From: a virus
Direction: 5' to 3' (one strand)
Virus record (IMG/VR): IMGVR_UViG_3300027747_001183
Length of the DNA stretch: 64,000 nt
The notes under the pieces are model-generated. The model saw nothing but the letters and a program-made list of their open reading frames with translations, did no database searches and had not been told where the DNA came from. Positions within the stretch are counted from its first letter, which is position 1; each line of letters begins with the position of its first letter. The position numbers and the translations under genes were made by a program. Positions 17,147-54,907 of this stretch are shown piece by piece.

Positions 17147-18436
17147 ATGACAGAAGTTTTTTGTCCACTACCATGGTATCATCTCGCTACTAAAGCAAAC
17201 GGCGATCTAAGAATCTGCTGTCAGTCTAATCAAGGACCGACAAGAGGTATTCTTAAGAACGAGAGCGGCGATACGTACAATCTAAATAAACACGGAATTA
17301 TGGATTCTAGAAACGCACCTCTAGCTAAAGAAGTGCGCGCAGCGATGCTCAATGGTATTAAGCACCCAGAGTGCTCTAGGTGTTGGAAAGAAGAGAGCAG
17401 TGGAATACGTAGCAAAAGAATAGGCTCAATCGAGCTTCATAGCATGTATGACTCATACGGCGAAGCTATTCAGGTTACTCAGCCAGATGGTACAATACCG
17501 CAAGACTTTCCATATAGAGACTACGATCTTAGATTTGGAAACTTATGCAACTTAAAGTGTAGAATGTGCGGACCGACTGAAAGTTCAATGTGGTATGACG
17601 ACTACTTTGAACAGCACGGTAAAAAGTTCGATGATACGGGTTATAGATGGCACGAGAGACCGGAGATATGGAGAGACTTAGAATCTCAGATGGAATATTC
17701 AGAGTACGTCTATATTATTGGAGGCGAGCCTACTCTAATACAGAAGCATTTTGAATTTTTAGAGAAGTGTATTAAGAACGATCACTCTAAACGCATGAGA
17801 CTTGAGTACGCATCTAACATAACTAACATTCATCAAAAGTACTTTGATATATGGAGTCAGTTCAAGAAAGTACATATAGCGTGCTCAATAGACGGTGTTG
17901 GAGCGGTGAATGACTACATACGATTTCCAAGTAAGTGGAAAGTCATTGAAAAAAACTTAGAGAAGCTAGTAGCATATTCGTCTAAGAAAATAAGAATTAC
18001 GATATCACTTACGGTGAACGCCTATAACGTGTACTATCTAGACGACGTATATAAGTGGAATCTTCAGAACCTAGAATGTAAGATTAATCCACACCCTCTC
18101 CATGGCCCGCGACTAATGAGCACAAAGATATTTCCTAAATACATTAAAGATGATATAGCTAAGAAGATAAGGTCTCTTTATCAGTGGATGAAAAATAACG
18201 GTCATGGTGATAAAGTGGAGAATATATCAAGACAAATAGAAAGTCATATACACTTTATGATGAGTGAAGATCTGTCTCAACTCATGCCAGAATTCTGGAA
18301 AGAGACAGACAAACTAGATGCAATTAGGAGACAGAATATATCAAATTCTCTCCCAGAGCTCTATGATTTGATAAAAGATACTCGAAATTTATTAAACATA
18401 GGAGACTACAATGGCATCAAAGAGCCTTCAGCCTGA
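17147..18436 (+). CDS. Radical SAM protein with N-terminal twitch/SPASM domain
   Basis: FCPLPW...RICC...EC.RCW then GNLCNLKCRMC and GGEP. Confidence 0.88.
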   Translation: MTEVFCPLPWYHLATKANGDLRICCQSNQGPTRGILKNESGDTYNLNKHGIMDSRNAPLAKEVRAAMLNGIKHPECSRCWKEESSGIRSKRIGSIELHSMYDSYGEAIQVTQPDGTIPQDFPYRDYDLRFGNLCNLKCRMCGPTESSMWYDDYFEQHGKKFDDTGYRWHERPEIWRDLESQMEYSEYVYIIGGEPTLIQKHFEFLEKCIKNDHSKRMRLEYASNITNIHQKYFDIWSQFKKVHIACSIDGVGAVNDYIRFPSKWKVIEKNLEKLVAYSSKKIRITISLTVNAYNVYYLDDVYKWNLQNLECKINPHPLHGPRLMSTKIFPKYIKDDIAKKIRSLYQWMKNNGHGDKVENISRQIESHIHFMMSEDLSQLMPEFWKETDKLDAIRRQNISNSLPELYDLIKDTRNLLNIGDYNGIKEPSA

Positions 18437-18728: not shown

Positions 18729-19772
18729 TTACCTTAAGAACTGGTCTTCGAAGTGGTCATGCTCTACTGAGCAAGTCTTTGCACACATTCGCAGTTTTCC
18801 TTCTGCGAGTGACGGCGCGCTCCATGACTTCTCAATCTTATCAAAGAATCCGCTCTCGAAGACGCCGTTTATACCGTGCACCTTTGCATCTATATCTGAT
18901 TTATCACTTATTATGTGCTTAAACAGGTGACTGTCTTTATATTTTGATACTTCGGGATCATACATCTCGGAGCCACCTATCCAGCAGCAAGGTACCACTA
19001 GCCCTTCTGCACTAACGTACATTGAATTCTGCTTAACGACCCTGCACCCAATCTCAGTCTTATCTAAGAACTTATCCCAGCCCCCAAACTTCTGCTTAGC
19101 GCGCTCTCTAAAGTCGTTTACGTCGTGTACGTATTCTTTCTTTTCCGGCTGAGATAGGTGTTTATATACTGACATGCCGTTCTGCCAGCGCGATGTACGC
19201 TTTGGTATAAAAGCCTTGAACCCTAGCTTCTTAGCCAGTGCTCGAGCTTCTTCTACCTGATGCTCGTTGTGCTTGAACACTAGAAAGTGCCACTCGGCTT
19301 GGCCGCCAGCACCTATGAAAGACTCCATCGCATTCATTACCCTGTCCCACTGGACGTTTTCTCTGTAGATATGGTTCGTATCTTCCAGTCCATCGACCGA
19401 GAAGGTAACTCGACCTTCATACAGCACCGATGCTAGGTCTCTCCACCACTCTGAGCTGCGCGCTCCTCCGTTGGTGAACATGCTCAGCTTCATAGATAGA
19501 TTAGTATACCTAAAATACTCAAACACTTCAAGCGTGTCTCTAGCCATTATAGGATCGCCGAAGTTTCCACACATGTACATGGCATGGAGCTGCTTGATAA
19601 AGTCTTTCTCAAAGATGTTCTTGCAGTCTTCTAGAGAAAGCTCAGCGTTCGTTAGGTGGTGCATTAGCTTTCCGCTACCGCTGCTGTCGTGTCTAGGACA
19701 CATGGCGCAGCCGGCCTGACACTTCTCAGTTATCTCTAGGTGTACCTTGCGTATATCCCTGTACTTATACAT
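18729..19772 (-). CDS. Radical SAM/SPASM protein
   Basis: HLEITEKCQAGCAMC, GNFGDP, C...YVSAEG.VVPCC...C..TC; start at MYKYRD (19772). Confidence 0.88.
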   Translation of the reverse strand: MYKYRDIRKVHLEITEKCQAGCAMCPRHDSSGSGKLMHHLTNAELSLEDCKNIFEKDFIKQLHAMYMCGNFGDPIMARDTLEVFEYFRYTNLSMKLSMFTNGGARSSEWWRDLASVLYEGRVTFSVDGLEDTNHIYRENVQWDRVMNAMESFIGAGGQAEWHFLVFKHNEHQVEEARALAKKLGFKAFIPKRTSRWQNGMSVYKHLSQPEKKEYVHDVNDFRERAKQKFGGWDKFLDKTEIGCRVVKQNSMYVSAEGLVVPCCWIGGSEMYDPEVSKYKDSHLFKHIISDKSDIDAKVHGINGVFESGFFDKIEKSWSAPSLAEGKLRMCAKTCSVEHDHFEDQFLR

Positions 19773-19987
19773 CAGATGGTCGTCGGTGACTTCATCGGAT
19801 CGTAAGGGTCGATCTTCTCTATGCGGCTGAGAGCGTCTTTCTCGTAGCGAAGAACTTGATACCATCCGAGGAAGGCAGTAAAGTCTGCAAACATGGCCGA
19901 GTAGTTCTGGTTGAAGATCTCAATGATAAAAGAAACCGCGACTACTGCTAGGATCGCGTACGAGAGCTTAATAAAGGTATGTATCAT
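19772..19987 (-). CDS. Small membrane protein
   Basis: Two hydrophobic segments; coupled to neighbours. Confidence 0.55.
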   Translation of the reverse strand: MIHTFIKLSYAILAVVAVSFIIEIFNQNYSAMFADFTAFLGWYQVLRYEKDALSRIEKIDPYDPMKSPTTI

Positions 19988-30391: not shown

Positions 30392-30580
30392 TTACCACCT
30401 TTCGTCGTCGATAATGATTGTTATTTTAATGAGACCTGCTCTTAGTACTGCGCTTAGTATTAGTCCAGGGTCGTGATCGCTTACAGTAGAATAGTCTAAA
30501 TAGAACCTCCACTTAAGTGGGTTCAGAAAAAGTGTAATGACGATGTCAGACTGTCTTAGATATGATAGGAACTTCTTCAC
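30392..30580 (-). CDS. Small hypothetical protein
   Basis: GTGA-coupled 62-aa ORF. Confidence 0.5.
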   Translation of the reverse strand: MKKFLSYLRQSDIVITLFLNPLKWRFYLDYSTVSDHDPGLILSAVLRAGLIKITIIIDDERW

Positions 30581-30897
30581 TTGTCGTCCTCAAACTGTTC
30601 ATCGTGTACGTAGAGCTGCATGACTGCGTAGTGAATGACCTTCATCATGTCCTTACGCCAGTCATCGGGACTGCCCTTACGGCCGTAGCGCTGGGCGTAC
30701 TTGAGTACGTTGCCAACGCAGAAGCCAGTGCCGTGACCGGAGTCGATGATGAACTCCGTGGCCTGAAACTTGTTCTTTGAGTAGTGCTCACCGTACGTAT
30801 TGTTAATATAATCTAAGATCTGATTAATGTACACATCTTCTTTGTACTTATACTTTGGCGCGTTCTGCTGGTCAACACCGAACTTAACAAAAGACAT
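30577..30897 (-). CDS. DUF3310 family protein (T7 gp1.7-like nucleotide kinase family)
   Basis: TY..HY, GFCVGNVLKYAQRYGRK, D..K..HY. Confidence 0.75.
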   Translation of the reverse strand: MSFVKFGVDQQNAPKYKYKEDVYINQILDYINNTYGEHYSKNKFQATEFIIDSGHGTGFCVGNVLKYAQRYGRKGSPDDWRKDMMKVIHYAVMQLYVHDEQFEDDK

Positions 30898-32096
30898 TAG
30901 AAGAACTCCTCGAGTGTTAGAGCTTTGGCTCCGGGTGTCTCGATCCTGTGATCGAAGTTGTACTGGAAAGTATACGTAGAGTTGATCATCGGTCTCTGCC
31001 CGTTGAGATAAGCGAGGACCTCAGTGGCCATGTCCTCTGCTGTCTGCACCGGTACGTTCTGACACATGTGATTGACGCTCTTCTCTGGATCTAGAAGCTC
31101 GAAGTTATCTGGGAGACCCATGATCGATAGGCCCTCGCGGTACGTGATATACCTGTCCTCGACTGGATGAGTCAGCGATGTTGGGTAGTGACCGACGAAA
31201 GCACCGATGTAGTCCTTAGGAATAACCGTGCCGCGGCGCATGATGTTGGCTCCTGTAGCCAGCTTATCGAACTTTCTCTTGCATCCGGCTACTTCTTTCT
31301 CATAGCCATGACGAGCCATCCACTCACCGACCTGCTCGTAGTTCCTACCCATCTTCTCTATGTATGAGAACGCATCATTGCCTCTAGCTCTCGATGGCTC
31401 AACGATCTTAGCGAACTCAGCGTGAGTTATCCCACCGTGAATGTCCTCGAGGATGTATCGGTAGTAGGGGTCCTGAGATGGAGTCTTCTTGTTGATGGGA
31501 TCCTGCAGGGTATTTCCCCTAGCATCTAAGATCGTCTGCTCGATTGACTTGTAAGGTCGATTGTACCAGCTGAGCTGGGGAGTCTCATCTCCCTCCCAGA
31601 AGAAGTAGAACGACCTCTCTCGAACTTGAGGGACGCCGTGGAGCATCGAGCGAGTGCGGTACACAGTCATTGAGTACTTGTTCTCTCTGGCTATGTCGTA
31701 CATCTGCGTCCTGATGTTCTCACCGATCTTGCCAGCAAATCCTGGAGCGTTCTCACCCCAGAAAACTTTTGGCTTGAGCTCACCGAGAACTAGCTTCGTG
31801 GTCTCGAGCATCCACTTGTTGTTTGGATTGTGATCACCGAAGCCGTGAGACATCTGAGATAGGCCGGCGCAGGGGCACACTGAGGCTATGACGTCAACTT
31901 TCTTCGGAGCAGATTGGTTCTTATCTAGAACGTAGTAGGGCACCTCGTTGTTGTAGTGATTAACGATGTGCCGGTCATTTGGCCAGAATGTCTCGTATGA
32001 TAGGAAGTACTCTGGTCTGGCACCGAACGCTCGCTCAGTGCCTATCGTCTCACCGCCTATAAGCGGGATGATAGATGCATGTGTAAAGGTCATCAC
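30897..32096 (-). CDS. C5 cytosine DNA methyltransferase-like protein
   Basis: Degenerate motif I IPLIGG, catalytic PC (VCPCAGLS), ENAP, HGVPQ.RER, R.IT.RE...IMG.P, QNVP. Confidence 0.8.
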   Translation of the reverse strand: MMTFTHASIIPLIGGETIGTERAFGARPEYFLSYETFWPNDRHIVNHYNNEVPYYVLDKNQSAPKKVDVIASVCPCAGLSQMSHGFGDHNPNNKWMLETTKLVLGELKPKVFWGENAPGFAGKIGENIRTQMYDIARENKYSMTVYRTRSMLHGVPQVRERSFYFFWEGDETPQLSWYNRPYKSIEQTILDARGNTLQDPINKKTPSQDPYYRYILEDIHGGITHAEFAKIVEPSRARGNDAFSYIEKMGRNYEQVGEWMARHGYEKEVAGCKRKFDKLATGANIMRRGTVIPKDYIGAFVGHYPTSLTHPVEDRYITYREGLSIMGLPDNFELLDPEKSVNHMCQNVPVQTAEDMATEVLAYLNGQRPMINSTYTFQYNFDHRIETPGAKALTLEEFF

Positions 32097-32942
32097 TTAC
32101 TCATTGTTAAATTTGACGTTCTGGGCTTTCTCGCGATCGTCCAGTTCAGTATATTTATTACGGATCTCTGAGTTCTTCTTAATAGCTTCCTGCAAAAGTG
32201 TGAATGGCTCATTAATTTTTTTAGAGTAGTGAAGTATAGCGCTGGTGTCTTTTGGAAAGCAAGCTCCACCGAATCCCTCCCTACCATCCGGACCCGGAAC
32301 TTGCATGTGAGTCATTCCAATTCTGGGATCAGCTGATAGGATCTTAGTGAAGTAGTCCCATGAGCAGTTGGCGTCGGTGCTGTCAAAGATCTGCTTGAAC
32401 TGGTTGAAGAAGAGGACCTTAGTAGCTAGGAAGGAGTTCATAGCGTACTTCACCAGAGATGCGGTGTAGATGTCGGTAGTGAATACCGGACACGGATTGC
32501 AGATGCTGTGGTCCTCATAGAGCTTCTTGCAGAACTCAACGTCTTTCTGCTTTCCTCCGAGAACGAGTGCGTGAGCGTTGACAAAGTCGTGCTTGGCCGT
32601 CCTCTCAGTTAAGAACTCTGGGTTGTACACCAGACGGTTGCACATTGCATCGAGCTTTCTTAGAACGTCAGGAGTTACCGTGCTCTTGATGATGACGACT
32701 GGGTCGTAGTCGTACTTTGAGATGTCATTGAGAACGCTCTCGATGATGCTCGAGTCAATTGAGCCGTCATCTCCCATCGGCGTCGGCACAGAGACGAAGA
32801 TGACATCGAGATTGAAGTCTCGCATCTCGTTTACTGTAAGAGAAGTATAAGCTGGATCTACTATGTACTTCTCAACTGAGTTAGTAAATCCAAAGTCAAC
32901 GGCTTTTCCGACGAAGCCGTACCCAACAATTCCTATCTTCAT
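32097..32942 (-). CDS. ugd: UDP-glucose/GDP-mannose 6-dehydrogenase (short form)
   Basis: IGIVGYGFVG, KSTV.P, NPEFL, K...NSFLATK, GFGGACFPKD catalytic Cys. Confidence 0.88.
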   Translation of the reverse strand: MKIGIVGYGFVGKAVDFGFTNSVEKYIVDPAYTSLTVNEMRDFNLDVIFVSVPTPMGDDGSIDSSIIESVLNDISKYDYDPVVIIKSTVTPDVLRKLDAMCNRLVYNPEFLTERTAKHDFVNAHALVLGGKQKDVEFCKKLYEDHSICNPCPVFTTDIYTASLVKYAMNSFLATKVLFFNQFKQIFDSTDANCSWDYFTKILSADPRIGMTHMQVPGPDGREGFGGACFPKDTSAILHYSKKINEPFTLLQEAIKKNSEIRNKYTELDDREKAQNVKFNNE

Positions 32943-33946
32943 CAGAACATCCTCTCGGTCCAAGTCTTGGGAGTCTTCTCGTTTTGTATCTCAATTGGCA
33001 GGTGGTAGTTGAAGTCCTTAGGACCTCGCATGCGAATGAAGTCGGCGGTGAGCTTAACGGCATCAGCTACCGTCGTAGTCGTCTCGTACTTGAGAAGCAG
33101 TCGAGCTTTATCACTCGAGCACACCGCGTGCTTTACTTCGCATGGCCGGCCCTCTTTGTAGTAGACCGGAGGTAAGTTGAGTCCGGTCTCGTTAGCGCAG
33201 AGCTTAGCCAGCTCATTGATAGTTATGAACTCCTCATCGGGGCCGATGTTGATGATCTCGCGGTTGATGCTGCGATCTAATCCCATCTTCTCTAAGCACG
33301 CGATGCAGTCGTCTACATATGAGAAGCACCGCGTCTGCTCACCATCGCCGTAGATGATCGATGGTAGCCCGCGCAGGTTTCGATTGAGCATGATCGACAT
33401 GACGTTGCGGAACGGGTCGTCGTACTTCTGGTTAGGACCAACGATGTTGTGGGGGACTGCGATGTTCCACTCAATGCCGTGCACTTCGCCCATCACTTTT
33501 AGAACCTCCTCAGCGGCGACTTTCGCGATGCCGTACGGATCTACTGGCATCGGCTTCATGTCCTCTGAGAACGGAGGTTGCTGCTCACCGTACCTAGCCA
33601 TCGACGTGCAGTTGACTATGCGCTTTACGCCAGCCGCTACTGCAGCTGAGAACGTAGCTACTGAGGCCTCGAAGATGTTGCTGGTAATGAAAGATGGAGA
33701 GAATACCGAGAGGCCCTCGTGGGCTGTTGCCGCGCAGTGGTATAGTAGGTCGTAGCCAGTGAGGGCGCGCTTCATCGCCTCTTGGTCCCTGCAGTCGATC
33801 GCGTCGAACTTAACGAATGAGTGCACGTTGTACTCATCGCCACCGACCATGCTGTCGTTGCCACCGACTTCGTGGCCGAGATCATGCATTCGCTTCGCGA
33901 TGTGCGATCCTAAGAATCCGGCTACGCCGGTCACATATACTTTCAT
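32942..33946 (-). CDS. NAD-dependent NDP-sugar epimerase/dehydratase (extended SDR)
   Basis: VTGVAGFLGS, HCAA, S...YG, YGIAK (YxxxK), GDGEQTRCFSYVDD. Confidence 0.9.
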   Translation of the reverse strand: MKVYVTGVAGFLGSHIAKRMHDLGHEVGGNDSMVGGDEYNVHSFVKFDAIDCRDQEAMKRALTGYDLLYHCAATAHEGLSVFSPSFITSNIFEASVATFSAAVAAGVKRIVNCTSMARYGEQQPPFSEDMKPMPVDPYGIAKVAAEEVLKVMGEVHGIEWNIAVPHNIVGPNQKYDDPFRNVMSIMLNRNLRGLPSIIYGDGEQTRCFSYVDDCIACLEKMGLDRSINREIINIGPDEEFITINELAKLCANETGLNLPPVYYKEGRPCEVKHAVCSSDKARLLLKYETTTTVADAVKLTADFIRMRGPKDFNYHLPIEIQNEKTPKTWTERMF

Positions 33947-35076
33947 TCCGAAACCCTCTTTATAAAGTCCTCTGCCGTCTCTTTGACGATCCACTCTTTT
34001 TCTTCTTGTAGAAGAGAAACCACTTTATTGAAATTATCATGATCTCTAATAAATGTCAACTTATCTATGAATTCCTCCCGATCTTTAAAGTACAAGACGT
34101 GATTTAAGTAGTCGCTCTTCATGAACGTCTTCTTATCATCTACTGTCTGGTCGATCAGCATAGCTTTAGAAACGGTGAGACCTTGCAAGAACCGGTGATT
34201 AATTCCGGTGTTGTTCTGCATGGCGTTTCCGATGACGAGAGATGCTATGTGGTCCTCGTATATCTTCGAGACGTTTTCGAGAGATACCCTGACGTTGCTG
34301 TTATCCCTGAACTTAGCGATCTTTCCATAGAAGTTAATGAGCCCGTCTTTCTCTGCTTTTGAGTTGAACAAGTTAAGCTCATTGAGTCTGCGATGGCGCG
34401 ATCGCTTGTTTGACCCGATGTAGCACACCGACTTCTTCAGCTCGCTGAATGATGGCTCAAAGAAGTTGTAGTAAGGCTCGCGTACATTGAATAGGTGCTC
34501 TCTCCAGGAGTCGATAAACTCGACTTCGTGGAACCTAGCGTGAATTGGATGATTGCGTATTGGATACGCTGAGCGCACGAAGAGGTTCTCTTTCTTCGTC
34601 TTGTATATGTTGTCCTCTAGCATGGACTTGGGGAAGTGCTTCTGCTTGTCCTCCATCGTCATCGGTGGAGAACCCATGTAAGTCAAGTTAGCAGTTAATA
34701 CGTAGAGCTTCTCGTAGAACTTCTTGATGTACTCACCTTTGGCCATCTCTGGGTCGCAGAAGAAGTAGCTTATCCTTCCCTTGAACTTACAGAGGGAGTT
34801 GATCGTGAAGATGTGGTACTTGTTGATCTCACCACCAAAGAAGTTCGGTTCCTCTCTGTTCATGAGAAGCTCGTCGAACTGGTCAACATCGACGTCGCGG
34901 TGGACTGTCCTGTACTTCTTACTTGAGATGTCGTCGTTCACTAAGATGTAGGGCTCATGTCCCTGCTTCTCAAGAGCTAGGTACACACCGCAGATCTCCT
35001 CCACGGTATTGTTTGTCGGCTTGTCGTCGATGATCTGTATGCCGACGTCGGTTAGGAATATGAGTATCTTAGCCAT
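33943..35076 (-). CDS. bgt: DNA beta-glucosyltransferase homologue (T4 Bgt-like, GT-B)
   Basis: DVDQFDEL...NFFGG..N...KFKGRISYFFCD and ASLVIG...N..I..R......AMLID...D.K...Y...R.E.ID align by eye with recalled T4 Bgt. Confidence 0.75.
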   Translation of the reverse strand: MAKILIFLTDVGIQIIDDKPTNNTVEEICGVYLALEKQGHEPYILVNDDISSKKYRTVHRDVDVDQFDELLMNREEPNFFGGEINKYHIFTINSLCKFKGRISYFFCDPEMAKGEYIKKFYEKLYVLTANLTYMGSPPMTMEDKQKHFPKSMLEDNIYKTKKENLFVRSAYPIRNHPIHARFHEVEFIDSWREHLFNVREPYYNFFEPSFSELKKSVCYIGSNKRSRHRRLNELNLFNSKAEKDGLINFYGKIAKFRDNSNVRVSLENVSKIYEDHIASLVIGNAMQNNTGINHRFLQGLTVSKAMLIDQTVDDKKTFMKSDYLNHVLYFKDREEFIDKLTFIRDHDNFNKVVSLLQEEKEWIVKETAEDFIKRVSE

Positions 35077-35422
35077 GTATGTAGTTCCTGCATAATTCGA
35101 GTTGCTCTAGCTCAAACTTAGGGTCGTTGAGCTTTCTATTTAGCCCGCTTGGATGTGGTAGTACGAAGTGATCGATGTTCAGCTTCTTGAGAGCGCTCGA
35201 CGGGAAGTTCCCGAGAGCAACTACTCTATCATATCCAGCTGCGCTCTTAGAGAGTCGATCGTAGTCGATGTCTGCTCTAGTGTAGGGTCCTGCTTCGGAG
35301 ATGCAGTTAGTAAATGATACGATTCCAGCTCCTATTCTATCGATCCAGAGTGGGAGCCTCCTCATAGTAGTATTTAGCTTTAAGTTCTTAGCAGAAGATG
35401 GATTGATCCCCACAATCAGCAC
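35069..35422 (-). CDS. Uracil-DNA glycosylase superfamily protein (small)
   Basis: LIVGINPS motif A, VVALG, LPHPSGLN motif B; start uncertain (35422 GTG or 35476). Confidence 0.7.
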   Translation of the reverse strand: MLIVGINPSSAKNLKLNTTMRRLPLWIDRIGAGIVSFTNCISEAGPYTRADIDYDRLSKSAAGYDRVVALGNFPSSALKKLNIDHFVLPHPSGLNRKLNDPKFELEQLELCRNYIHG

Positions 35423-35837
35423 GCGCCGAGACGCCAGCTTCTTTGAAGATGTCCATCGTGATCTTGAACGAGTCATTCCACTTCTCTCTGATGTTTTCTG
35501 GATAGCACATGAAGACTCTCTTGATGCCTACTTGGACAACTCCTTTAGCGCACTCAGAACACACAGGAAGGCCGCTAACATAAAGATCTGCATTATCGAG
35601 GCTAACTCCATTTAGAGTGGCGTTGTATATGCAGTTCATCTCTGCGTGCACAACGAACTTGTACTTCTGTTCCCTGTTAGAGAGCCTATCATTGGTGTCA
35701 GCTATGCCTCGGGGGAATCCGTTGTATCCCTGAGATAGGATCTGCCCTCCCTTACCAACAGCTACGGCGCCGACTTTAGTGCTAGGGTCCTTGGACCAGC
35801 AAGCGATGTGGCCCGCTAAGTCCAAGTACTTGTTCAT
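35388..35837 (-). CDS. cd: dCMP deaminase
   Basis: WSKDPSTKVGA, GYNGFPRG, HAEMN, PVCSEC. Confidence 0.92.
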   Translation of the reverse strand: MNKYLDLAGHIACWSKDPSTKVGAVAVGKGGQILSQGYNGFPRGIADTNDRLSNREQKYKFVVHAEMNCIYNATLNGVSLDNADLYVSGLPVCSECAKGVVQVGIKRVFMCYPENIREKWNDSFKITMDIFKEAGVSARADCGDQSIFC

Positions 35838-35844
35838 CCAGCTC

Positions 35845-36492
35845 TCAGAGAACGAGGTCAAAGTGCCTCTCATAGATGTGCAGCGAAGCCGCGTTCCAAT
35901 AGATATTTCCAGTCTCGTAGCCGAGCTCATCGCACATGCGATCGAGCACGTATCTCTGCCACGCTCGATCGTTCTTGTAACCATAGATCACGTCGTTAGA
36001 ACGCATGTACACGAGAGCATGCAGGCGATTGTGGCGGATCATGTACTGAACTGTGTTGGTGCACATGAAGTCGCTCATGCCGTCGCGATTGTACTCACTC
36101 CACATTGTTGGACGGGTGTAGATCATCACCGCCCGACGAGACTCAGGGTTCATCTGAAGCTCGGAGACGACGTTGTCGTATTGAGCGTGGTTCTCATCCG
36201 ACCACACGCACCAGCCGTAGTTGGAGTTGATCTCACCATTCTCACTCGACACCTGCTGCCAGATCGCTGGAGGCCCGCCGGGAATATCGTTGACGTTGAG
36301 AGACATCGACTCGTACCACTCGATCTCGCGCATGACGTAGTCTTCGTTGACTGTGCCAAAGATCGTGGGCTCATAGGCGATGAACGATGCGTTCATGATC
36401 TCGAGCATCTTGACGCCGCTCTTGTCGCGAACGAAGTTGTTGTTCTCAAGATCATAGTGAAAAGTCGCTCGGATGTCCGGTATGGTCATCAT
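35845..36492 (-). CDS. gp42: dCMP hydroxymethylase (T4 gp42-like, thymidylate synthase fold)
   Basis: EIEWYES, INSNYGW, SRRA.MIYTRP.M, DFMCTNTVQY.IR, MRSNDV.YG.KND.AWQ (Asp at dCMP-specificity position), SLHIYERHF. Confidence 0.88.
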   Translation of the reverse strand: MMTIPDIRATFHYDLENNNFVRDKSGVKMLEIMNASFIAYEPTIFGTVNEDYVMREIEWYESMSLNVNDIPGGPPAIWQQVSSENGEINSNYGWCVWSDENHAQYDNVVSELQMNPESRRAVMIYTRPTMWSEYNRDGMSDFMCTNTVQYMIRHNRLHALVYMRSNDVIYGYKNDRAWQRYVLDRMCDELGYETGNIYWNAASLHIYERHFDLVL

Positions 36493-36854
36493 TTGTTGCG
36501 GTCTTTCTCATAGTAGTATTGCGAGTGCTGCTTTGGATTATTGAATATGTCGCGCGTTTGATCTTGACCTTCGATGCCGCCACGAATCCAAGCGACCGCG
36601 AACGATGCGTAGTTGATGAGATCTTTGTACGTATCTTCAAGAGACTCAAAGTTCGCTTGATCCGCACGGCCAGACTCAAGGAGCGACTGAGCGCGATAGA
36701 GCTTGCCTTGGAGAGTATCGTGGATTGAGTCTATGCCGCGACGATAGTGCATCGCCTGCTTTACGTTTGAGTTTGGGTTCTGATAGTCCTGAGACTTCTT
36801 GATCTGCAGGTCCATGCACTCTCTGAGTACCTTTACTGATTCTTTATCGCTCAT
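36489..36854 (-). CDS. Nucleotide-modification-associated alpha-helical protein (Nmad1/DUF1599-like)
   Basis: KKSQDY...K..RA.SL...ESLEDT..DLINYASF. Confidence 0.7.
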   Translation of the reverse strand: MSDKESVKVLRECMDLQIKKSQDYQNPNSNVKQAMHYRRGIDSIHDTLQGKLYRAQSLLESGRADQANFESLEDTYKDLINYASFAVAWIRGGIEGQDQTRDIFNNPKQHSQYYYEKDRNK

Positions 36855-37429
36855 GCTGCTGCTCCATCAAAATAAACGTGATCGCGGTAGAAGGCATCGC
36901 CTGTCTTTACCGCGTTATGGTGGTCATAGTAAGATTTATTGGTGTAGTTAGAAGGGCGCACGTACTTCTCAAAAGTCTTTGCATCTGCAACTAAGTGAAA
37001 TGCTACCGTATAGAAAGACGGAGTGCGAAACACCTTTCCGGATACAAAGTAGTCGACGATGTCGACGTTCTTCATGAAGGTGTTGATGTCTTTGTAGTTA
37101 AAGCTGAACCACTTCTCAGCCCATCGCTTGCACTCAAAAGTGCAGTTATTCTCGTCAATCAAGTCATACGCGTACGAGTGACGATTAGTCTTATCAAACT
37201 CAAGTGGGTTGAGAGGAATTCCAGTCAGCTGTGCGAGCGCGTGCTCGACGACCATCTTCTCGACAGACTCGTGCACGGTCTTAAAATTTCGCTTAGATGA
37301 GTTTCGTACTGGACAGCGGTATATTTCGTTTGCAATGTCGTTGAACTTCTTGTTAAGTTCTTCAGTACGCTTTACTTTTACAGGTTCTGCGGCCAAGATA
37401 ATGCCGGCGTAGTATGCTAGATCTTTCAT
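36851..37429 (-). CDS. denB: Endonuclease IV-like (T4 DenB), dC-specific
   Basis: E..A.....D.....YAYDL....ECK...W.S and KYVRPSNY resemble recalled DenB YAWDV..EVK..W.S / KVVRKSNY. Confidence 0.65.
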   Translation of the reverse strand: MKDLAYYAGIILAAEPVKVKRTEELNKKFNDIANEIYRCPVRNSSKRNFKTVHESVEKMVVEHALAQLTGIPLNPLEFDKTNRHSYAYDLIDENNCTFECKRWAEKWFSFNYKDINTFMKNVDIVDYFVSGKVFRTPSFYTVAFHLVADAKTFEKYVRPSNYTNKSYYDHHNAVKTGDAFYRDHVYFDGAAA

Positions 37430-37495
37430 GGTAGTCTCCTAATTAAGCACTCAGTGCAGGTTACTATGTTAATATAGACTAATTCTGGAAAAATG

Positions 37496-37897
37496 TCAAC
37501 CAAAGATTTTACGCAAAAACCCGTAATTATTTGAATGGCTTGGACCGACCCAGCCTTCTGGCTTGATTAAGTCTGGCAGTCCCAGAGGGTTCGGGCGACT
37601 AGACTTGATGCCGGTCTGCTTGGTCATGTTGGCTTTCAAGACCTCGTCCCAAGCCTTGTGAGAGTCGACTCCGAAGCCGTCCAGTGTACCGATGGCCACG
37701 ACGCAGAGGTCGATCAGGGCATCTACCACGTCTTCTGCATTCTCTGCGTTCTTGAGCTCAGTCAGCTCTTCCATGAGGAAGTCGATGCGGAACTGCAGAA
37801 ACTTCTTGAGTGTATCTTCATCCATCTTGTCGATGACGGGGTGCACTCCATAGTGTGCGTGCATCATCGTAATATCAGTAGCCCAGTCTTTAGACAT
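37496..37897 (-). CDS. MazG-like NTP pyrophosphohydrolase (candidate dCTPase/dUTPase)
   Basis: EELTEL....EDVVDALIDL, V..ANM.K, DLIKPEGW. Confidence 0.8.
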   Translation of the reverse strand: MSKDWATDITMMHAHYGVHPVIDKMDEDTLKKFLQFRIDFLMEELTELKNAENAEDVVDALIDLCVVAIGTLDGFGVDSHKAWDEVLKANMTKQTGIKSSRPNPLGLPDLIKPEGWVGPSHSNNYGFLRKIFG

Positions 37898-38426
37898 TAA
37901 TCCACTCCGGTGTTGGTCGCTTTGTCCACTTGTGCATCTGCGACTTTCCAATCTTATAATAGTTTCTATAGTTTGTCAACGGGTCATCCGAGATGATGTA
38001 CTCGGGAGCCATGCACGACGGCATAGGCGTCATGTTCCAGTCCTTGAGGTTGTTAGGAGCATAGAAGAGAGCGCCCATGAGCTTCTCGCATGCATGGACC
38101 TTGCCGTATCGATAAGTGTACTCGAAGTGCAGGGCCTTGAGATGCTCGTACAGCCACTTGTAGTTGCCGACCGTAGTACGGCACCAGACAGCAGAAGGGT
38201 GGTTGACGTGGGTAGCCGAGTACAGCATCTCCTCGCGGACGTCGGGTAGCACCCAGCGCTTGACCTTGCGGCCGGTCTTTGTCTGACCGACGTATTCCGT
38301 GCCGTCGATTACGCGATGAGCAGTAGACAGAAGCTGCGTAGTCTCGAGGATCATCTTGACCACGTGCTTGTCCACCATCATGGTGGCAGCTTCTACTGGG
38401 TTCTCATCGATGTAGAATATGTTCAC
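37890..38426 (-). CDS. Pyrimidine-dimer DNA glycosylase/DenV-like family protein
   Basis: MNIFY.D..P, DKHVVKMILE..QLLSTAH, THVNHPS.VW, YR.YY. Confidence 0.75.
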   Translation of the reverse strand: MNIFYIDENPVEAATMMVDKHVVKMILETTQLLSTAHRVIDGTEYVGQTKTGRKVKRWVLPDVREEMLYSATHVNHPSAVWCRTTVGNYKWLYEHLKALHFEYTYRYGKVHACEKLMGALFYAPNNLKDWNMTPMPSCMAPEYIISDDPLTNYRNYYKIGKSQMHKWTKRPTPEWINV

Positions 38427-38689
38427 TTGTCTTTATCCTTATACTCGGCTTCGGCCTGCTCGATAGCTCTCGTCAGTGCAGTGTTTATCCATGACTCGAT
38501 CTTGGACTGAAGCTCTTCCGTTACAGAGCCGGGTTTCATCGGCTCAAGATCATTATTATCCGTTATCCGGTAAATGTCAACTGCTATTGCCATGCCTTCT
38601 TCATCTTCCGTGATAAAGTCGCCTTCTGGGAAGCATACAAAGTAGTCGTCGATTCGAAAGCCGTCAGTATTTGATAGTTGTTTTTCCAT
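38423..38689 (-). CDS. Hypothetical acidic protein
   Basis: Coupled ORF with AGGA RBS. Confidence 0.55.
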   Translation of the reverse strand: MEKQLSNTDGFRIDDYFVCFPEGDFITEDEEGMAIAVDIYRITDNNDLEPMKPGSVTEELQSKIESWINTALTRAIEQAEAEYKDKDK

Positions 38690-39179
38690 TGTAGAATCCT
38701 TTCATTGCTCTGTCGCGGTGGTACTTGTTTGCACGATTGAAGAATAGTATGCCGTTTAGGTGGTCTATCTCGTGCTGTACTACGCGCGCAGTAAGACCGT
38801 CGAACGTCTTTGTGTCAAATCCTCCTGAAGGAGTCTGAAACCGCAGCCGTACAGTATTAGACCTCTTTACCTTCACGTTGACTCCGGGGAATGAAAGGCA
38901 GCCTTCTTCTAGAAGGTTCTCTTCCTCGCTCTTGAAGACTAGCTTTGGGTTGAAGCATACGAAGTTATGGTCTAGACCTCGCATCGCAAATACGCGATAG
39001 GGAATCCCTATCTGGTTTGCAGAGAGACCGATGCTTTTATGCTCATTCATCTTCTCGAGCATCGTAGAAGACAACTCATAGGGATCTTGCTGGGGATTTG
39101 CAAAGTCAAACAGCTGAGTTGCCGTAGTAAGTATATCATTGGGGTACTTTATCAGTTCCATAATTTTATATTCACTCAT
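38664..39179 (-). CDS. def: Peptide deformylase
   Basis: GLSANQIG, EGCLSFPG, QHEIDH. Confidence 0.93.
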   Translation of the reverse strand: MSEYKIMELIKYPNDILTTATQLFDFANPQQDPYELSSTMLEKMNEHKSIGLSANQIGIPYRVFAMRGLDHNFVCFNPKLVFKSEEENLLEEGCLSFPGVNVKVKRSNTVRLRFQTPSGGFDTKTFDGLTARVVQHEIDHLNGILFFNRANKYHRDRAMKGFYNGKTTIKY

Positions 39180-51313: not shown

Positions 51314-51592
51314 TTAATTTTTATAAGCAACTGGTGTAGCTGCCAAAGAAACACCTGAATGGTTTGACGTTATAATATCTGTTTTACCTTTTTCTACGAT
51401 AAAACTTTCTCCACCTACAATAGACACACTCCACAAGATTGTTGTGTTAGTTGAGTCTTTGCATGTAATTACAGCTAAAGTTGTTATTGCACCTGCATGT
51501 GACATCAATACTAAAGAACTATTACCATAAGAACTAAAAGTTGAAGTATTACAACTTGATGTATTGCCAGTTGGTTTAATTATAGCAGCCAT
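51314..51592 (-). CDS. Small hypothetical structural-region protein
   Basis: Ser/Thr-rich, AT-rich ORF upstream of gp21. Confidence 0.6.
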   Translation of the reverse strand: MAAIIKPTGNTSSCNTSTFSSYGNSSLVLMSHAGAITTLAVITCKDSTNTTILWSVSIVGGESFIVEKGKTDIITSNHSGVSLAATPVAYKN

Positions 51593-54500
51593 TAGATTCC
51601 ATGCTCCTCTGCAAATGCTAGAAGAGTGTCGATGCCGTCTTGTGAACCAAGCATGTCATCGAACTTAACCCTGTTCTCTTCTGAGAGCGTATCATATAGA
51701 CGCTCTAGTACTTCTTCTGCCATCTTCTTCTTCTTTGACCTAAGAAGCTTAAAGTCTATCTTGGTAAGCTTCTCGTCACGGTTCATGTCTAGGTTCTTCT
51801 GTCCACCAACTAATTCTTCTACCTTGATCTCTCTCTTTGCTGCCCTAACGAACTTAGGGCGACCATTCGGGAAGACTCTGATAATCATGGGACCCCTTGC
51901 AGAATCCTTTGTAGTTACGTCAGTGTCTTCATTTCTTATAGATCTCTTAGTCATAGATCCGAGAGATACCCTTGGCTTCTTTTCTACTGCAGGGGGCTTG
52001 CCGTGCTTCACTACGTGCATGAAGTGTTCGTGCGAGTGAGCCAGGGCATTCTGTACTTCTTCTTTCTTACCCATAGCTACCGTAGTATTTGCATGTATCT
52101 CAAGGGCTTTTGCTACGTGCTTTGGATCTACGAGGTGCTTCTCGCCGTTCTCAAAAGTAAGCTTGTGCATACCGTTGACTGGAGCCTTGTGCATCTGGTT
52201 GATGATGTTGTTATTTGCTGCGCGTTCTACGCGATCTGACTCTTCTTCGTCGTCGCCCTTCTTCTCTACTACGTAGTCTTCACCCATGCGGTTCATGAAG
52301 TTGCCGTAGCTGGAAGCCATCTTACCAGACTGGCTGTAAGATGGAGCTGAGTCAGAAGTCTTATCTTTATCGCCATAGACCATATAGTCATGGACTCCAG
52401 AGATCATCTCCTTGGCAGAAGCGATCTTTGACTGTACCCATGGCTCGATGTGCATGCTCTGAGACATATTGTTCATCATGTCTTCAGCTTTAGCGCATAT
52501 AGCCTTGAGCTCAGTGCGCACCATCGACACCTCATCAGAGACGTAGTCGTTGTCTTCATATGCCTCGTTGCGCTGCTTTGAATAGTAGGCAGCCATCGCC
52601 TGCTTCATTCGTTCTTTCTTTGACTTGCCTGCTAAATTAGAAGCTTTACTGTGAACAAAGTCTGATATCCAAGTACCAATAGGAGTCTTCTTTGTAAGGA
52701 CTTCATTGACTTGCTCGACTTCTTCATTCTGTTTAGTAGAAGATTCTTTTTTCTGTCTTTCAAGATCTCGAATTTGATCTAGAATAGTGTTCCTCTTATT
52801 ACGAAGTCCTTCTTCTCTAGGACTCATAGTTCTGCTTCCTCTATTTCTGCGAGCTTGTTGTGCGCGTCCATATAGAACATCATGACGATTATATTGGTTT
52901 TGCAAGCTTGCAATCTTCTTGTCGATGTTTTCATTGACTTGCTCGACTTCTTCAGCAACAGATATAGTACCTATATGACGACCAATTGGTTGTTTTTTAT
53001 TACGAATATAATATAAATGAGTATTTTCCTCACCATACTTATTTGTATGACTAATTGTATGACCTGGAATATCAGCTCTAATACGCCCAGGACCATAACG
53101 ATCTCTCATTGCTTTTTTGTGGGCGTCTGGTACTGTTGCTTCATAAAGTTCAACTTCTTCTTTAATTCTTCTTAAAGCACTAGGTTCTACGATTGTTTTT
53201 GTACCACCCATTGTTGTAATACGAGATTGCGTACCTGTTATAAATCCACCAAAGTCTACTTCATGATCACCATTAGGTAAAATTTTTGTTATAATACCTT
53301 TATGGCCATGAGAAGCAGATCCTGGAGCATGGATTTTTACAAGATCACCAACATGGTGTGCTTCATCAATAGTTCCAGTAATGCCTTTTCTAAGAACAGT
53401 ATCTTTTTCTTGTTCGCCTTTAGAAAGAGCATAAAAAGGTGTTCGTTGAAGTTTTTCTCTAGCAGCTTGTTTTTCTGGATTAGGTGCAGGCACTTGATTA
53501 ACTGTTTTACCCCAACCTTTATGAACTTCAGAATCTTGTGCTCTAGAATTACCACCCATTCTTTTAGATGTAAGAGCAGCATGAGCGCTATTAAAATTCG
53601 CCACAGAACCAAACCCTTGCTTTCTTCTATTACCAGCGATAGGTGACACACCACCTTTAGTAGTACCATAGTGATATTTTGTATTTAATGCTTCATCACC
53701 TCGAGTCGCTGCACGTGCAGTTCTTACATTTTGTACTCCAGGACTTACAGGACGAAATGTTCCTTTTTTACCCATTTCATTGACTTGCTCGACTTCTTCA
53801 TTCTTCATAGGTTTTCTAGAATAAACGTCAACGCGTGCGCTGTGCTCAGGCTTGATGTCTTGAGATGTCATCCTATAGTGTTTGCCGCCCCTCTTATAAA
53901 GGTGCTTGAACTTATCGAGAGGAGTGCGGCCGCGAACCCTGTGTCCGCCGACGGCTTTGCTCTTCATGTCAGCGAGCTTCTCGTCGTAGTCGGGATCGTC
54001 TTTCTTAATAGTGCCGATGTAGGTGTCGGTACGACTCGCTTCGTCGAGCTCAACGTCTTCGTTCTTCATAGCTGCTTTACGGGCTTTTTCATCTCTCATC
54101 ATCTTTACAATGTTTGGTGAACCAAACTCTGGAGCTTTCTTCATTGTGTCAGAATAAAGCTTTGGCTTAGACATAGTTGACTTTGCTTCATCAAGTTCTG
54201 CTTCTTTTTTCATTGAAGTGTAGCCAAGACCAGACCAGTGCTTCTTGTGTACGTGACCGAGAACGAAGTCGCGAGGATCAGTGTCCATCTTGGCAAGATG
54301 GTTCTTTAGACCTTCGAGGTGACCGTGCTCGATATGGTGAGCAGCCTGAAGCATGTCATGCCTATCGATGCCGCCATGCTCGCGCGCATAATTTCTAAGC
54401 TCTTTATGGTCGCCAAGTGAGTGGCTCATGTTTGCTTCGTTGTGAATCTTCTTTAGAGTCTGTGCGAGCTTTAGGCCCCTGTCATATGCCTGTGCAGACT

Positions 54501-54693
54501 GGTCACCTTCGTATGATGCAGTCTTTGGATCTTCCCTGCGCTTGTTGCCGTTGAATACGTGCTCTTGATCAGTAACGCCTGGAACTAAGTTCTTGTGATC
54601 GACCGAGTGAAGAGCCTTGAAGTTCTTCTCACCCTGTGATAGAGGCTGCTGAGTCTCTTTGAGAGACTTCTTTAAGAGGTCATACATTTTCAT
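51592..54693 (-). CDS. Large modular prohead core/internal protein (~1030 aa)
   Basis: Located in gp67/68 slot; repeated EEVEQVNE/EDVELDEA/EEVELYEA linkers between basic His-rich modules; likely start MKMYD (54693). Confidence 0.75.
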   Translation of the reverse strand: MKMYDLLKKSLKETQQPLSQGEKNFKALHSVDHKNLVPGVTDQEHVFNGNKRREDPKTASYEGDQSAQAYDRGLKLAQTLKKIHNEANMSHSLGDHKELRNYAREHGGIDRHDMLQAAHHIEHGHLEGLKNHLAKMDTDPRDFVLGHVHKKHWSGLGYTSMKKEAELDEAKSTMSKPKLYSDTMKKAPEFGSPNIVKMMRDEKARKAAMKNEDVELDEASRTDTYIGTIKKDDPDYDEKLADMKSKAVGGHRVRGRTPLDKFKHLYKRGGKHYRMTSQDIKPEHSARVDVYSRKPMKNEEVEQVNEMGKKGTFRPVSPGVQNVRTARAATRGDEALNTKYHYGTTKGGVSPIAGNRRKQGFGSVANFNSAHAALTSKRMGGNSRAQDSEVHKGWGKTVNQVPAPNPEKQAAREKLQRTPFYALSKGEQEKDTVLRKGITGTIDEAHHVGDLVKIHAPGSASHGHKGIITKILPNGDHEVDFGGFITGTQSRITTMGGTKTIVEPSALRRIKEEVELYEATVPDAHKKAMRDRYGPGRIRADIPGHTISHTNKYGEENTHLYYIRNKKQPIGRHIGTISVAEEVEQVNENIDKKIASLQNQYNRHDVLYGRAQQARRNRGSRTMSPREEGLRNKRNTILDQIRDLERQKKESSTKQNEEVEQVNEVLTKKTPIGTWISDFVHSKASNLAGKSKKERMKQAMAAYYSKQRNEAYEDNDYVSDEVSMVRTELKAICAKAEDMMNNMSQSMHIEPWVQSKIASAKEMISGVHDYMVYGDKDKTSDSAPSYSQSGKMASSYGNFMNRMGEDYVVEKKGDDEEESDRVERAANNNIINQMHKAPVNGMHKLTFENGEKHLVDPKHVAKALEIHANTTVAMGKKEEVQNALAHSHEHFMHVVKHGKPPAVEKKPRVSLGSMTKRSIRNEDTDVTTKDSARGPMIIRVFPNGRPKFVRAAKREIKVEELVGGQKNLDMNRDEKLTKIDFKLLRSKKKKMAEEVLERLYDTLSEENRVKFDDMLGSQDGIDTLLAFAEEHGI
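52702..53800. repeat. Three identical 25-nt direct repeats TTCATTGACTTGCTCGACTTCTTCA
   Basis: Copies at 52702-52726, 52930-52954 and 53776-53800; encode EEVEQVNE on - strand. Confidence 0.9.
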
Positions 54694-54907
54694 CTGATTG
54701 TTCTTCCTGATCTGTGGTTTCTTGTTCCTCAGAATCGACTGCTTCTTGCTGACCGTCAGTAGCACCAAAGATGCTAGCGGCTACATCAGGAAACATCGCG
54801 TCAACTGCGTCGGCCACCTTAGATGTCATGATATCGTCGATCGCGGTCTTTAGTCCGACTGCGTCCTTGTTGAATGCGCTAGTAAAGATGTCAGCGATAG
54901 TAGTCAT
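54680..54907 (-). CDS. Small acidic prohead core protein (gp67-like)
   Basis: Directly downstream of portal; acidic; TATAAATA at 54932-54939. Confidence 0.6.
   Translation of the reverse strand: MTTIADIFTSAFNKDAVGLKTAIDDIMTSKVADAVDAMFPDVAASIFGATDGQQEAVDSEEQETTDQEEQSDENV

Follow-up and report, generated by a model that had tools for sequence, protein, structure and literature searches.

The 64,000-nucleotide stretch analysed here (IMG/VR virus record IMGVR_UViG_3300027747_001183; the whole stretch is called the window below) carries a cassette of eleven genes that would make 5-hydroxymethylcytosine (hmC) and glycosylate it with a distant relative of the phage T4 DNA beta-glucosyltransferase (BGT). 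Directly behind the transferase, the cassette encodes an epimerase-like extended short-chain dehydrogenase/reductase (SDR) and a short enzyme resembling uridine diphosphate (UDP)-glucose dehydrogenase (Ugd). Our best reading of these genes is a predicted hmC decorated with a uronic acid, either glucuronic or galacturonic acid, whose donor the phage would make itself, and we see about an even chance that it is correct. The novelty lies in the way the genes are combined (hmC made before replication, a transferase of BGT fold, a divergent SDR and a short Ugd), and the modification itself would be of a kind already known. The window belongs to the genome of an uncultured T4-like myophage.

Organization of the cassette

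The eleven genes were delimited from the listing of open reading frames (ORFs) together with profile searches. All of them lie on the minus strand between positions 30577 and 37897 and form one tightly packed run. In the order of transcription they encode a MazG-type protein, a protein of 192 amino acids (aa), an Nmad1 protein, a homologue of T4 gp42, a deoxycytidine monophosphate (dCMP) deaminase, a small protein resembling uracil-DNA glycosylases (UDG-like), the glycosyltransferase (GT), the SDR, the Ugd, a protein resembling C5-cytosine methyltransferases (MTase-like) and a DUF3310 protein. Most junctions are overlaps of 1-11 nt. The sole real gap of the run (37430-37495) contains a good sigma-70-like promoter match (37471-37499, minus strand; TTGACA-17-TATATT, 11/12), which lies upstream of the gene for the 192-aa protein and is a consensus match only. 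The cassette was assembled from four independent samples at 98-99% identity, and diverged relatives of it exist in two other loci (L001 and L002); therefore it is not a product of chance, a chimera or an assembly artefact. The initial annotation had described a tightly packed run with mostly overlapping stops and starts, and this sequence observation is confirmed for all eleven genes with two corrections, which are that the Ugd is short and that motif I of the MTase-like protein is atypical.

Synthesis of hmC and its glycosyltransferase

The gp42 homologue (35845-36492) matches the dCMP hydroxymethylase structure 1b49 with a phmmer E-value of 9.8e-87 and about 60% identity to T4 gp42, whereas the best true thymidylate synthase (ThyA) gives only 1.7e-15. 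The catalytic Cys148 is kept (DFMCTN, the same as in T4), and so is the cytosine-specifying Asp179, where YKND is aligned to FRND of T4. It may be noted that the RB69-type thymidylate synthase (TS) homologues, which make 5-hydroxy-dCMP, have Asn where E. coli ThyA has D169 (PMC13326640). In the window this position holds Asp (in MRSNDV) as it does in T4, which marks the TS homologue as a predicted hydroxymethylase; a 5-hydroxy-dCMP synthase was considered as a candidate and rejected on this diagnostic site. The synthesis of hmC by a gp42-type enzyme, as proposed in the initial annotation, thus appears well supported by the residues of the protein.

The GT (33943-35076) was assigned to the T4 BGT family, which has the GT-B fold, from its family profile and its predicted fold. 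As a single sequence it reaches 24.2 bits against Pfam PF09198, under the 27-bit cut-off, and 1.2e-13 against PHROG 7922. A profile built from its 8 homologues found T4 BGT as the only match in PDB (3.9e-11). The AlphaFold (AF2) model of the protein has a pLDDT of 86.8, and a Foldseek search with it gave T4 BGT (1qkj) as the top match with an E-value of 4.9e-14 and TM-scores of 0.69/0.73, while the next GT-B folds had TM-scores of at most 0.48. The claim of a T4 BGT homologue therefore held when tested by both profile and predicted structure. Two invariant residues align with functional residues of T4 BGT, namely D108 (in FFCDPE) with the catalytic base Asp100 (LFTD) and R295 with the UDP-binding Arg269. 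The position of E272 in T4 BGT is occupied by Gln, and the identity between the two proteins is 16-19%. Together, sequence and model point to a genuine but distant T4 BGT relative, and the predicted glycosylation of hmC by this relative is well supported in kind. As regards the donor, T4 BGT is able to accept UDP-glucose modified at C6, as in the labelling method that uses UDP-6-azido-glucose.

Relatives of the GT are rare, with just 8 found among 5.8 billion proteins. A tblastn search of 50,697 phage records and a pattern scan of IMG/VR, both made with the GT, returned nothing, and the protein database search is hence the sole source of the BGT-type cassettes. In the two loci with the longest relatives (L001, GT 61% identical, and L002, 48%), the order of hydroxymethylase, deaminase, GT, SDR and short Ugd is kept. 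In L001 the next gene after Ugd is the MTase-like one; in L002 it comes about 1.3 kb later.

The SDR and the short Ugd

The SDR (32942-33946) is an extended SDR resembling nucleoside diphosphate (NDP)-sugar 4-epimerases (Pfam Epimerase, 6.5e-39) and has the Ser/Thr-Tyr-Lys triad with YxxxK (TGVAGFLGSH, CTS, PYGIAK). Its matches in PDB are led by the UDP-glucose 4-epimerase GalE of T. maritima (1.5e-36), followed by the UDP-glucuronate (UDP-GlcA) 4-epimerase of B. cereus (BcUGAepi; 9.3e-30), MoeE5 (3e-25) and UDP-xylose synthase (UXS; 1e-21). In the stretch CTSMARYGE the catalytic Ser/Thr is not followed by an acidic residue, which makes a dehydratase or a decarboxylase unlikely and agrees with the earlier remark that the STSEVYG signature of UDP-xylose synthase is lacking. 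This bears on the idea of a pentose on hmC, whereby Ugd would make UDP-glucuronate and the SDR would decarboxylate it to UDP-xylose, a 4-keto-pentose or an arabinose derivative, giving a pentosyl-hmC of 389 amu. Such decarboxylases of the UXS type are indeed among the relatives of the SDR in PDB at about 1e-21, and pentose-decorated cytosines exist in RB69, DLP3 and Thanatos. But the epimerases score 8-15 orders of magnitude better than the UXS-type enzymes, the acidic residue of the TSEVYG-type decarboxylases is absent, and the pentose systems known so far are built on 5-hydroxycytosine and obtain their sugar by another pathway. We consider a pentose to be very unlikely.

The Ugd (32097-32942) is a two-domain enzyme that matches PF03721 (4e-15) and the UDPG_MGDP_dh central domain (1e-16). 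Its motifs are a Rossmann GIVGYGFVGK (GxGxxG), NPEFLTE, KYAMNSFLATK with Lys and Asn, and GGACFPKD with the catalytic Cys; of these, GGACFPKD and KYAMNSFLATK are invariant in 19 relatives. The AF2 model of the protein (pLDDT 88) matches structures of UDP-glucose dehydrogenase (UGDH) at Z of about 20, over chain residues 1 to about 330-350 only. Likewise, the protein aligns to positions 76-302 of the 413 positions of TIGR03026, and its chain ends at model position 302.

Survey of the SDR-Ugd module

A scan of IMG/VR with the short Ugd gave at least 589 viral loci, of which the best 80 were analysed, with GT families assigned by Pfam. The SDR stands next to Ugd in 46 of the 80 loci, and 35 of 80 have a gene of a DNA-GT family within 5 kb of Ugd. 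The GT families found were TAGT (TET-associated GT, PF20691) in 25 loci, AGT (T4 alpha-glucosyltransferase, PF11440) in 10 and GT4 in 5. When only the 39 well-flanked loci (3 kb or more to either side) are considered, a GT is also present in 23 of the 27 with an SDR-Ugd pair as opposed to 1 of the 12 without the SDR. A gp42 homologue was within reach in 12 of the 80 loci, and 10 of these 12 also have a GT. On a quick tree of Ugd the GT family changes many times, which suggests that the donor module stays the same while the transferase beside it is exchanged.

The loci with an AGT-family GT tie the SDR-Ugd module to uronic acid chemistry. Their SDR matches 5u4q at 1.9e-71, BcUGAepi at 2.7e-48 and MoeE5 at 3.3e-38 and keeps the segment FFTVYGPxGRPD, which marks it as a clear relative of UDP-glucuronate 4-epimerases. 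At the level of sequence, then, the survey shows a putative donor module of SDR and short Ugd combined repeatedly with three unrelated DNA-GT families, largely in marine T4-like phages. The initial annotation had called for a synteny survey of bgt, epimerase and ugd. Its outcome is that the linkage is kept in the two BGT-type relatives and that the SDR-Ugd pair also stands beside AGT and TAGT, and this conserved and recurring linkage speaks for Ugd and SDR as suppliers of the DNA transferase.

Some loci of the survey may be mentioned separately. The short Ugd family (about 280 aa with intact catalytic motifs) spans marine phages and SAR11-like bacteria (for example L004, L008, L006 and L083). 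In three marine T4-like contigs a TAGT (PF20691) or GT4 gene adjoins SDR-Ugd (L083:4557-5492, 8026-8865; L059:4382-5215; L071:7656-8876). A 79-kb phage contig has a row of ThyX, an AGT-family GT, a GT8-like gene, a UDP-GlcA 4-epimerase, the short Ugd and a small cytidylyltransferase (L006:5068-9328), and this gene row suggests a disaccharide or a further-decorated DNA sugar. A ThyX gene also lies near the TAGT-type SDR-Ugd pair in a viral contig estimated to be 86% complete.

Evaluation of the predicted uronic acid

A number of points weigh against a uronic acid on hmC, and the first of them concern the SDR. Its best match in PDB, as given above, is a UDP-glucose 4-epimerase. Also, BcUGAepi has S127, S128, T178 and R185 as what we take to be its carboxylate-related residues, and the window SDR has M, A, N and K at the aligned positions. 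As these contacts are missing, UDP-GlcA is a putative substrate of the SDR and we do not file the protein as a UDP-GlcA 4-epimerase. Its identity to the UDP-GlcA 4-epimerase-type SDR of the AGT cassettes is only 23-26%. The best match of the SDR in the phage collection (37%) is in Marine virus AG-345-E08, where no cassette was found.

The second group of points concerns Ugd, which has no C-terminal UDP-binding domain (PF03720) although every solved UGDH matched here contains it. As a consequence, its synthesis of UDP-GlcA is assumed rather than secure, and the protein is filed as UGDH-like and not as a full member of the UGDH/GMD family. The call of a UDP-glucose 6-dehydrogenase in the initial annotation thus stands as to the intact Rossmann and catalytic motifs but not as to the complete domain set. 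A search nearby for the missing domain was negative, the ORF downstream of Ugd being the MTase-like gene. A pseudogene or split gene was considered and rejected, because no such domain is encoded nearby and the short length is kept in thousands of relatives (>7500 in the database; among those listed, mostly 279-297 aa). Our literature searches found no usable paper on a characterised UGDH without this domain, nor one on the residues by which T4 BGT contacts the sugar. The short Ugd is moreover common in bacterial, SAR11-like contigs, where it is found inside polysaccharide clusters.

The best match of the SDR, its missing carboxylate contacts and the missing UDP-binding domain of Ugd would fit a neutral hexose on hmC, in which case the GT would use UDP-glucose, or UDP-galactose from a GalE-type SDR, and Ugd would serve otherwise or balance the pool. 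Hexose-5hmC products that depend on an epimerase are documented for phage pairs of GT and epimerase (bioRxiv 10.1101/2023.12.21.572611). However, Ugd is kept right after the SDR in every BGT-type cassette and in most AGT- and TAGT-type cassettes with its catalytic motifs intact, which is hard to explain if the uronic acid is unused. A neutral hexose seems fairly unlikely to us.

The loss of the C-terminal domain may also be read in another way, whereby the GT glucosylates hmC, the domain-less Ugd oxidises C6 of the bound glucose, and the MTase-like protein carries out chemistry independent of S-adenosylmethionine (SAM) on hmC. The absence of a domain that every solved UGDH matched possesses would open the active site to a polymer, and the model of the short Ugd resembles two-domain hydroxyacid dehydrogenases at Z of about 17. 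The MTase-like family, described below, has an invariant non-canonical motif I with intact motifs for covalent catalysis. But the same short Ugd family occurs in bacterial loci for polysaccharides, in which one would not expect a sugar on DNA, and its partner in the AGT-type cassettes is a canonical UDP-GlcA 4-epimerase, an enzyme that depends on soluble UDP-GlcA. Both facts weaken the idea that Ugd acts only on DNA-bound sugar, and we regard this course of events as highly improbable. In its wider form, the idea would have both the short Ugd and the MTase-like enzyme act on the DNA polymer, with a multi-step tailoring of the sugar on DNA and SAM-independent C5 chemistry on C or hmC. This is quite unlikely in our view. 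The two genes are found side by side, and conserved, in over 20 phage lineages.

The third group of points comes from phages with the SDR-Ugd pair outside an evident hmC context. The Kyanoviridae phage C48C1 has SDR and Ugd, but its complete genome lacks a ThyA-family gene and no GT adjoins the pair. In the TAGT-type viral contig estimated to be 86% complete, which has SDR and short Ugd, there is no match to the ThyA family; a Tet_JBP search was empty in this contig but also in 14 of 14 control genomes, so absence of that family is not shown by it. Phages with hmC are therefore not the only carriers of the pair. The separation of ugd and epimerase from bgt and gp42 in relatives, which the initial annotation had named as evidence to the contrary, is thus found in part, i.e. 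in C48C1, in the 86%-complete contig and, for the short Ugd, in bacterial polysaccharide loci. The cyanophage literature also reads genes of the SDR and Ugd type as modifiers of the cell surface (PMC12801897). On this basis the two enzymes may lie outside the DNA pathway and make host envelope sugars or glycosylate virion proteins, with the GT using host UDP-glucose as in T4. The occurrence of SDR and short Ugd in C48C1 with no gp42-type gene and the frequency of short Ugd in bacterial polysaccharide clusters favour such a role. It is opposed by the overlap of SDR and Ugd from stop to start inside the hmC operon, and by the 23 of 27 well-flanked SDR-Ugd loci that have a DNA-GT within 5 kb, with three unrelated DNA-GT families involved. 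We hold a role outside the DNA pathway to be unlikely.

A last point concerns the MTase-like gene, which fits poorly with a complete replacement of C, since an ordinary C5-methyltransferase would have no substrate on phage DNA if C were fully replaced by hmC.

Taken together, the proposal that Ugd and the epimerase supply a donor other than glucose to the BGT homologue is strengthened by the recurrence of their linkage with DNA-GTs and weakened by the lack of the carboxylate-contact residues in the SDR and of the UDP-binding domain in Ugd.

Proposed pathway

In our best reading, the pathway would run as follows. The gp42-type enzyme would make hydroxymethyl-dCMP while MazG and/or Nmad1 would deplete dCTP, the dCMP deaminase would feed the synthesis of dTMP, and the DenB-like nuclease may destroy host DNA that contains cytosine. 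The phage polymerase would then build hmC into the genome in place of C. The BGT-family transferase of GT-B fold would flip hmC out of the duplex and glycosylate its hydroxyl by means of the catalytic Asp D108. As donor we infer a phage-made UDP-hexuronic acid and not host UDP-glucose, for which the short Ugd would convert UDP-glucose to UDP-glucuronate and the adjacent SDR would presumably 4-epimerise it, probably to UDP-galacturonate. The product would be hexuronosyl-hmC in beta linkage, for which a nucleoside mass of 433 is predicted. A charged sugar other than glucose would shield the DNA from restriction enzymes and nucleases that read hmC or glucosyl-hmC; that the modified hmC evades GmrSD, as suggested earlier, is pure speculation.

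Sugar-decorated cytosines are one of the main escapes of lytic phages from restriction enzymes, CRISPR nucleases and modification-dependent defences. The systems that make them are also a source of tools, for example T4 BGT for the mapping of 5hmC. From the cassette one would predict a member of the BGT family whose donor sugar is charged and other than glucose. If true, hexuronosyl-hmC DNA would have a natural route that starts before replication, 5hmC could be labelled with a carboxylate handle by a new transferase of the BGT type, and there would be two puzzling conserved enzymes to characterise, namely a UGDH without the UDP domain and a C5-methyltransferase fold without the SAM motif. The gain would be incremental, since an acidic sugar on hmC via a partner epimerase has already been shown experimentally (bioRxiv 10.1101/2023.12.21.572611).

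Comparison with known systems

An experimental precedent comes from phage clusters of methyltransferase, TET and GT genes that were reconstituted in E. coli, where the 'subclass II' GTs need a partner epimerase (bioRxiv 10.1101/2023.12.21.572611). Isomeric hexuronic-acid-5hmC products of 433 amu were obtained in that work from GT57, which has a GT-A fold, together with its epimerase, and from GT91 alone; a phage Ugd is not mentioned. The window resembles the subclass II clusters in pairing a DNA GT with an NDP-sugar epimerase that would supply the donor, and in those clusters hexuronic acid on hmC has been demonstrated. They differ in that 5hmC arises there after replication by a methyltransferase and a dioxygenase, GT57 has the GT-A fold and host UDP-GlcA is used, whereas in the window hmC would be made as a nucleotide, the GT is BGT-type with a GT-B fold, and the Ugd-like gene is carried by the phage.

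A uronic acid on DNA is also known from Bacillus phage SP-15, whose DNA carries phosphoglucuronolactone and which encodes a Ugd (PMC5977210). As in our reading of the window, the phage Ugd (gene 146 there) is proposed to supply the uronic acid that ends on DNA (PMC5977210). However, the SP-15 base is a dihydroxypentyl-uracil replacing thymine that bears glucose and phosphoglucuronolactone, the uronic acid is linked by a phosphodiester, and the gene set is unrelated (PMC5977210). The two Ugd proteins share about 31% identity over 78% of the query.

Supply of NDP-sugars by the phage for DNA glycosylation is documented for UDP-arabinose in RB69, DLP3 and HY126, for a UDP-galactose mutase in RL38J1 and for a UDP-xylose pyrophosphorylase in Thanatos (PMC13326640, PMC12838424). 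Like the window phage, RB69, DLP3, HY126 and Thanatos are T4-like phages with their own NDP-sugar supply beside a TS homologue and DNA GTs. The arabinosyl-5-hydroxycytosine systems differ in having the TS homologue with Asn at ThyA-D169 that leads to 5-hydroxy-dCMP, and in deriving arabinose from ribulose-5-phosphate (PMC13326640, PMC12838424). The initial annotation had proposed a candidate new DNA sugar modification. This does not hold, because hexuronic-acid-5hmC has already been made (bioRxiv 10.1101/2023.12.21.572611), SP-15 carries glucuronate (PMC5977210) and sugar supply is known from RB69, DLP3, RL38J1 and Thanatos (PMC13326640, PMC12838424).

The T4 glucosyl-hmC system consists of gp42, the gp56 dCTPase, the cd deaminase, DenB and the beta-glucosyltransferase (CAZy GT63). 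The window has in common with it the gp42 homologue (60%), the dCMP deaminase, a post-replicative transferase of BGT fold with the same catalytic Asp, and the T4-like backbone. Unlike T4, it adds the SDR, the Ugd, and the MTase-like, UDG-like and Nmad1 proteins, MazG would stand in for gp56, and the donor is probably not UDP-glucose.

Also comparable are the AGT-type cassettes of marine T4-like phages (for example L036, L047, L053, L064 and L088), which encode gp42, deaminase, an AGT-family GT, a UDP-GlcA 4-epimerase, a short Ugd and an MTase-like protein. They share with the window the gene order, the short Ugd and the MTase-like, UDG-like, MazG and Nmad1 families. Their GT is of PF11440 and not of the BGT family, and their SDR is a relative of the canonical UDP-GlcA 4-epimerases. 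As a result, the anomeric linkage and possibly the sugar would differ from those of the window.

Nucleotide-pool genes and the possible DenB-like nuclease

The MazG-type nucleoside triphosphate pyrophosphohydrolase (37496-37897) matches Pfam PRA-PH (1e-7) and PHROG 671 (9e-18), and its best relative in PDB is the MazG-like DR2231 (9e-5). Its start was set at 37897 after the gene calls in two related contigs (L093/L094), and MazG is found beside gp42 homologues in 12 related loci. That dCTP would be its substrate is inferred from sequence. The Nmad1 protein (nucleotide-modification-associated domain 1, DUF1599; 36489-36854) matches Pfam DUF1599 (1e-5) and PHROG 1485 (9.5e-13), and also PHROG 18404, in which a part of MazG is fused to it. 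It is about 52% identical to proteins of the Serratia phages PS2 and Muldoon. Both MazG and Nmad1 are candidates for the removal of dCTP. The dCMP deaminase (35388-35837) is assigned by Pfam dCMP_cyt_deam_1 (2.8e-17), PHROG 174 (7e-41) and the zinc motifs HAEMN and PVCSECA (PCxxC-type); its start is probably MNKYLD.

The 192-aa protein (36851-37429) is a possible PD-(D/E)xK nuclease resembling DenB (T4 endonuclease IV), judged from a weak profile match and the alignment of motifs. It has no match in Pfam, PHROG or phage tblastn searches, a BLASTP comparison with T4 DenB gave nothing, and a Pfam scan of 14 members of its family found no relevant family. The profile of these 14 members compared with T4 DenB gave an hhalign E-value of 0.018 at a probability of only 2.5%. 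Yet the alignment is in register, with YAYDxxD..FECKR of the family against YAWDVL..VEVKT of DenB (D..ExK core) and a C-terminal SNY. A language-model (atlas) search scores 0.94 to Endonuclease IV clusters, and a homologue with 65% identity (P0141) is tagged PF26887. The DenB-like nuclease of the initial annotation is thus plausible, not proven: the aligned motifs, the atlas score and the tag of the homologue speak for it, and the hhalign probability and the empty BLASTP comparison against it.

Other conserved members of the cassette

The MTase-like protein (30897-32093; Pfam DNA_methylase, 5.5e-19) aligns to M.HhaI from residue 58 on, and its N-terminal 57 residues are unaligned. In comparison with M.HhaI, the motifs for covalent catalysis, IV (PCAGLS), VI (GENAPG) and VIII (PQVRER), are kept. 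Motif I is IPLIGG and not the SAM-binding FxGxGG, and this form is invariant in 22 cassette homologues; nor does the family have a conserved acid in motif II, the putative position of which varies between E, D, K and T. The earlier label of a C5-MTase-like gene is hence appropriate for the catalytic motifs but not for the SAM-binding part. Homologues were found in 21 loci (L001, L002, L016, L022, L031, L041, L046, L047, L051-L053, L058, L059, L061, L064, L070, L076, L077, L081, L088 and L089). The gene lies right after the short Ugd in most loci and just before SDR and Ugd in the TAGT-type loci. Among isolates, its relatives were found only in S-TIM5-type cyanophages and one Pseudoalteromonas phage at about 30% identity; in Cyanophage S-TIM5, which has the best isolate relative, no GT context was found.

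The small protein that resembles the UDG superfamily (35069-35476) has sub-threshold matches to Pfam UDG (2.9e-4; 21.4 bits against a cut-off of 24.3) and DUF1643 (4e-4), and no PDB sequence match was found for it even at E 5. In 8 related loci a member of its family likewise separates deaminase and GT, and the family has the motifs GxN/SPS and PHPSxxNRxxND. The window protein has GINPS and PHPSGLN, and the Asn is replaced by Ser in half of the homologues; its sequence reads GINPS ... PHPSGLNRKLND. The start codon, which overlaps the terminal part of the deaminase gene, is uncertain, and gene callers, which give 88-98 aa, shorten the UDG-like gene. The protein may act as a glycosylase on deaminated hmC or C.

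The DUF3310 protein (30577-30897; Pfam DUF3310 1.2e-9, PHROG 480 1.6e-28) is a possible nucleotide kinase, with weaker matches to PHROGs annotated as such, and DUF3310 occurs near the cassette in many related loci. Its role as a kinase of hydroxymethyl-dCMP is only a guess.

Source phage and genes around the cassette

The minus strand carries nearly all genes of the window in the ORF listing. Homologues of the T4-like backbone are present on the replication side (gp43 polymerase, gp45 clamp, gp44 clamp loader, gp46/47, gp41 and UvsW) as well as on the virion side (gp23 capsid protein, gp20 portal, gp18 sheath and gp17 terminase). Compared with the capsid protein of Stenotrophomonas phage DLP6, that of the window shows 70% identity; the value is about 62% for the capsid proteins of Melnitz, pelagimyophages and cyanomyophages. 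A megablast search with the cassette region gave no DNA-level match in 50,697 GenBank phage records. Among the other large ORFs of the window that were scanned, no second GT or sugar-nucleotide gene was found.

Directly upstream of MazG (37890-38426) is a gene for a 178-aa protein that matches PHROG 624 'DNA binding protein' (9e-54) and, weakly, Pfam Pyr_excise (T4 DenV-like glycosylase). A phage-encoded peptide deformylase (38664-39179; PHROG 2890, 6e-43) lies between the cassette and gp46. Genes for radical SAM enzymes are scattered in the region of the replication genes (17147-18436 on the plus strand, 18729-19865 and 2404-3249 on the minus strand). In the block of head genes, a 1058-aa ORF (51592-54768) matches no PHROG family. 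Also present are a non-specific DNA/RNA endonuclease (Endonuclease_NS, 1e-43) at 1042-1845 and a BPL_N/GATase-like protein at 6553-7203.

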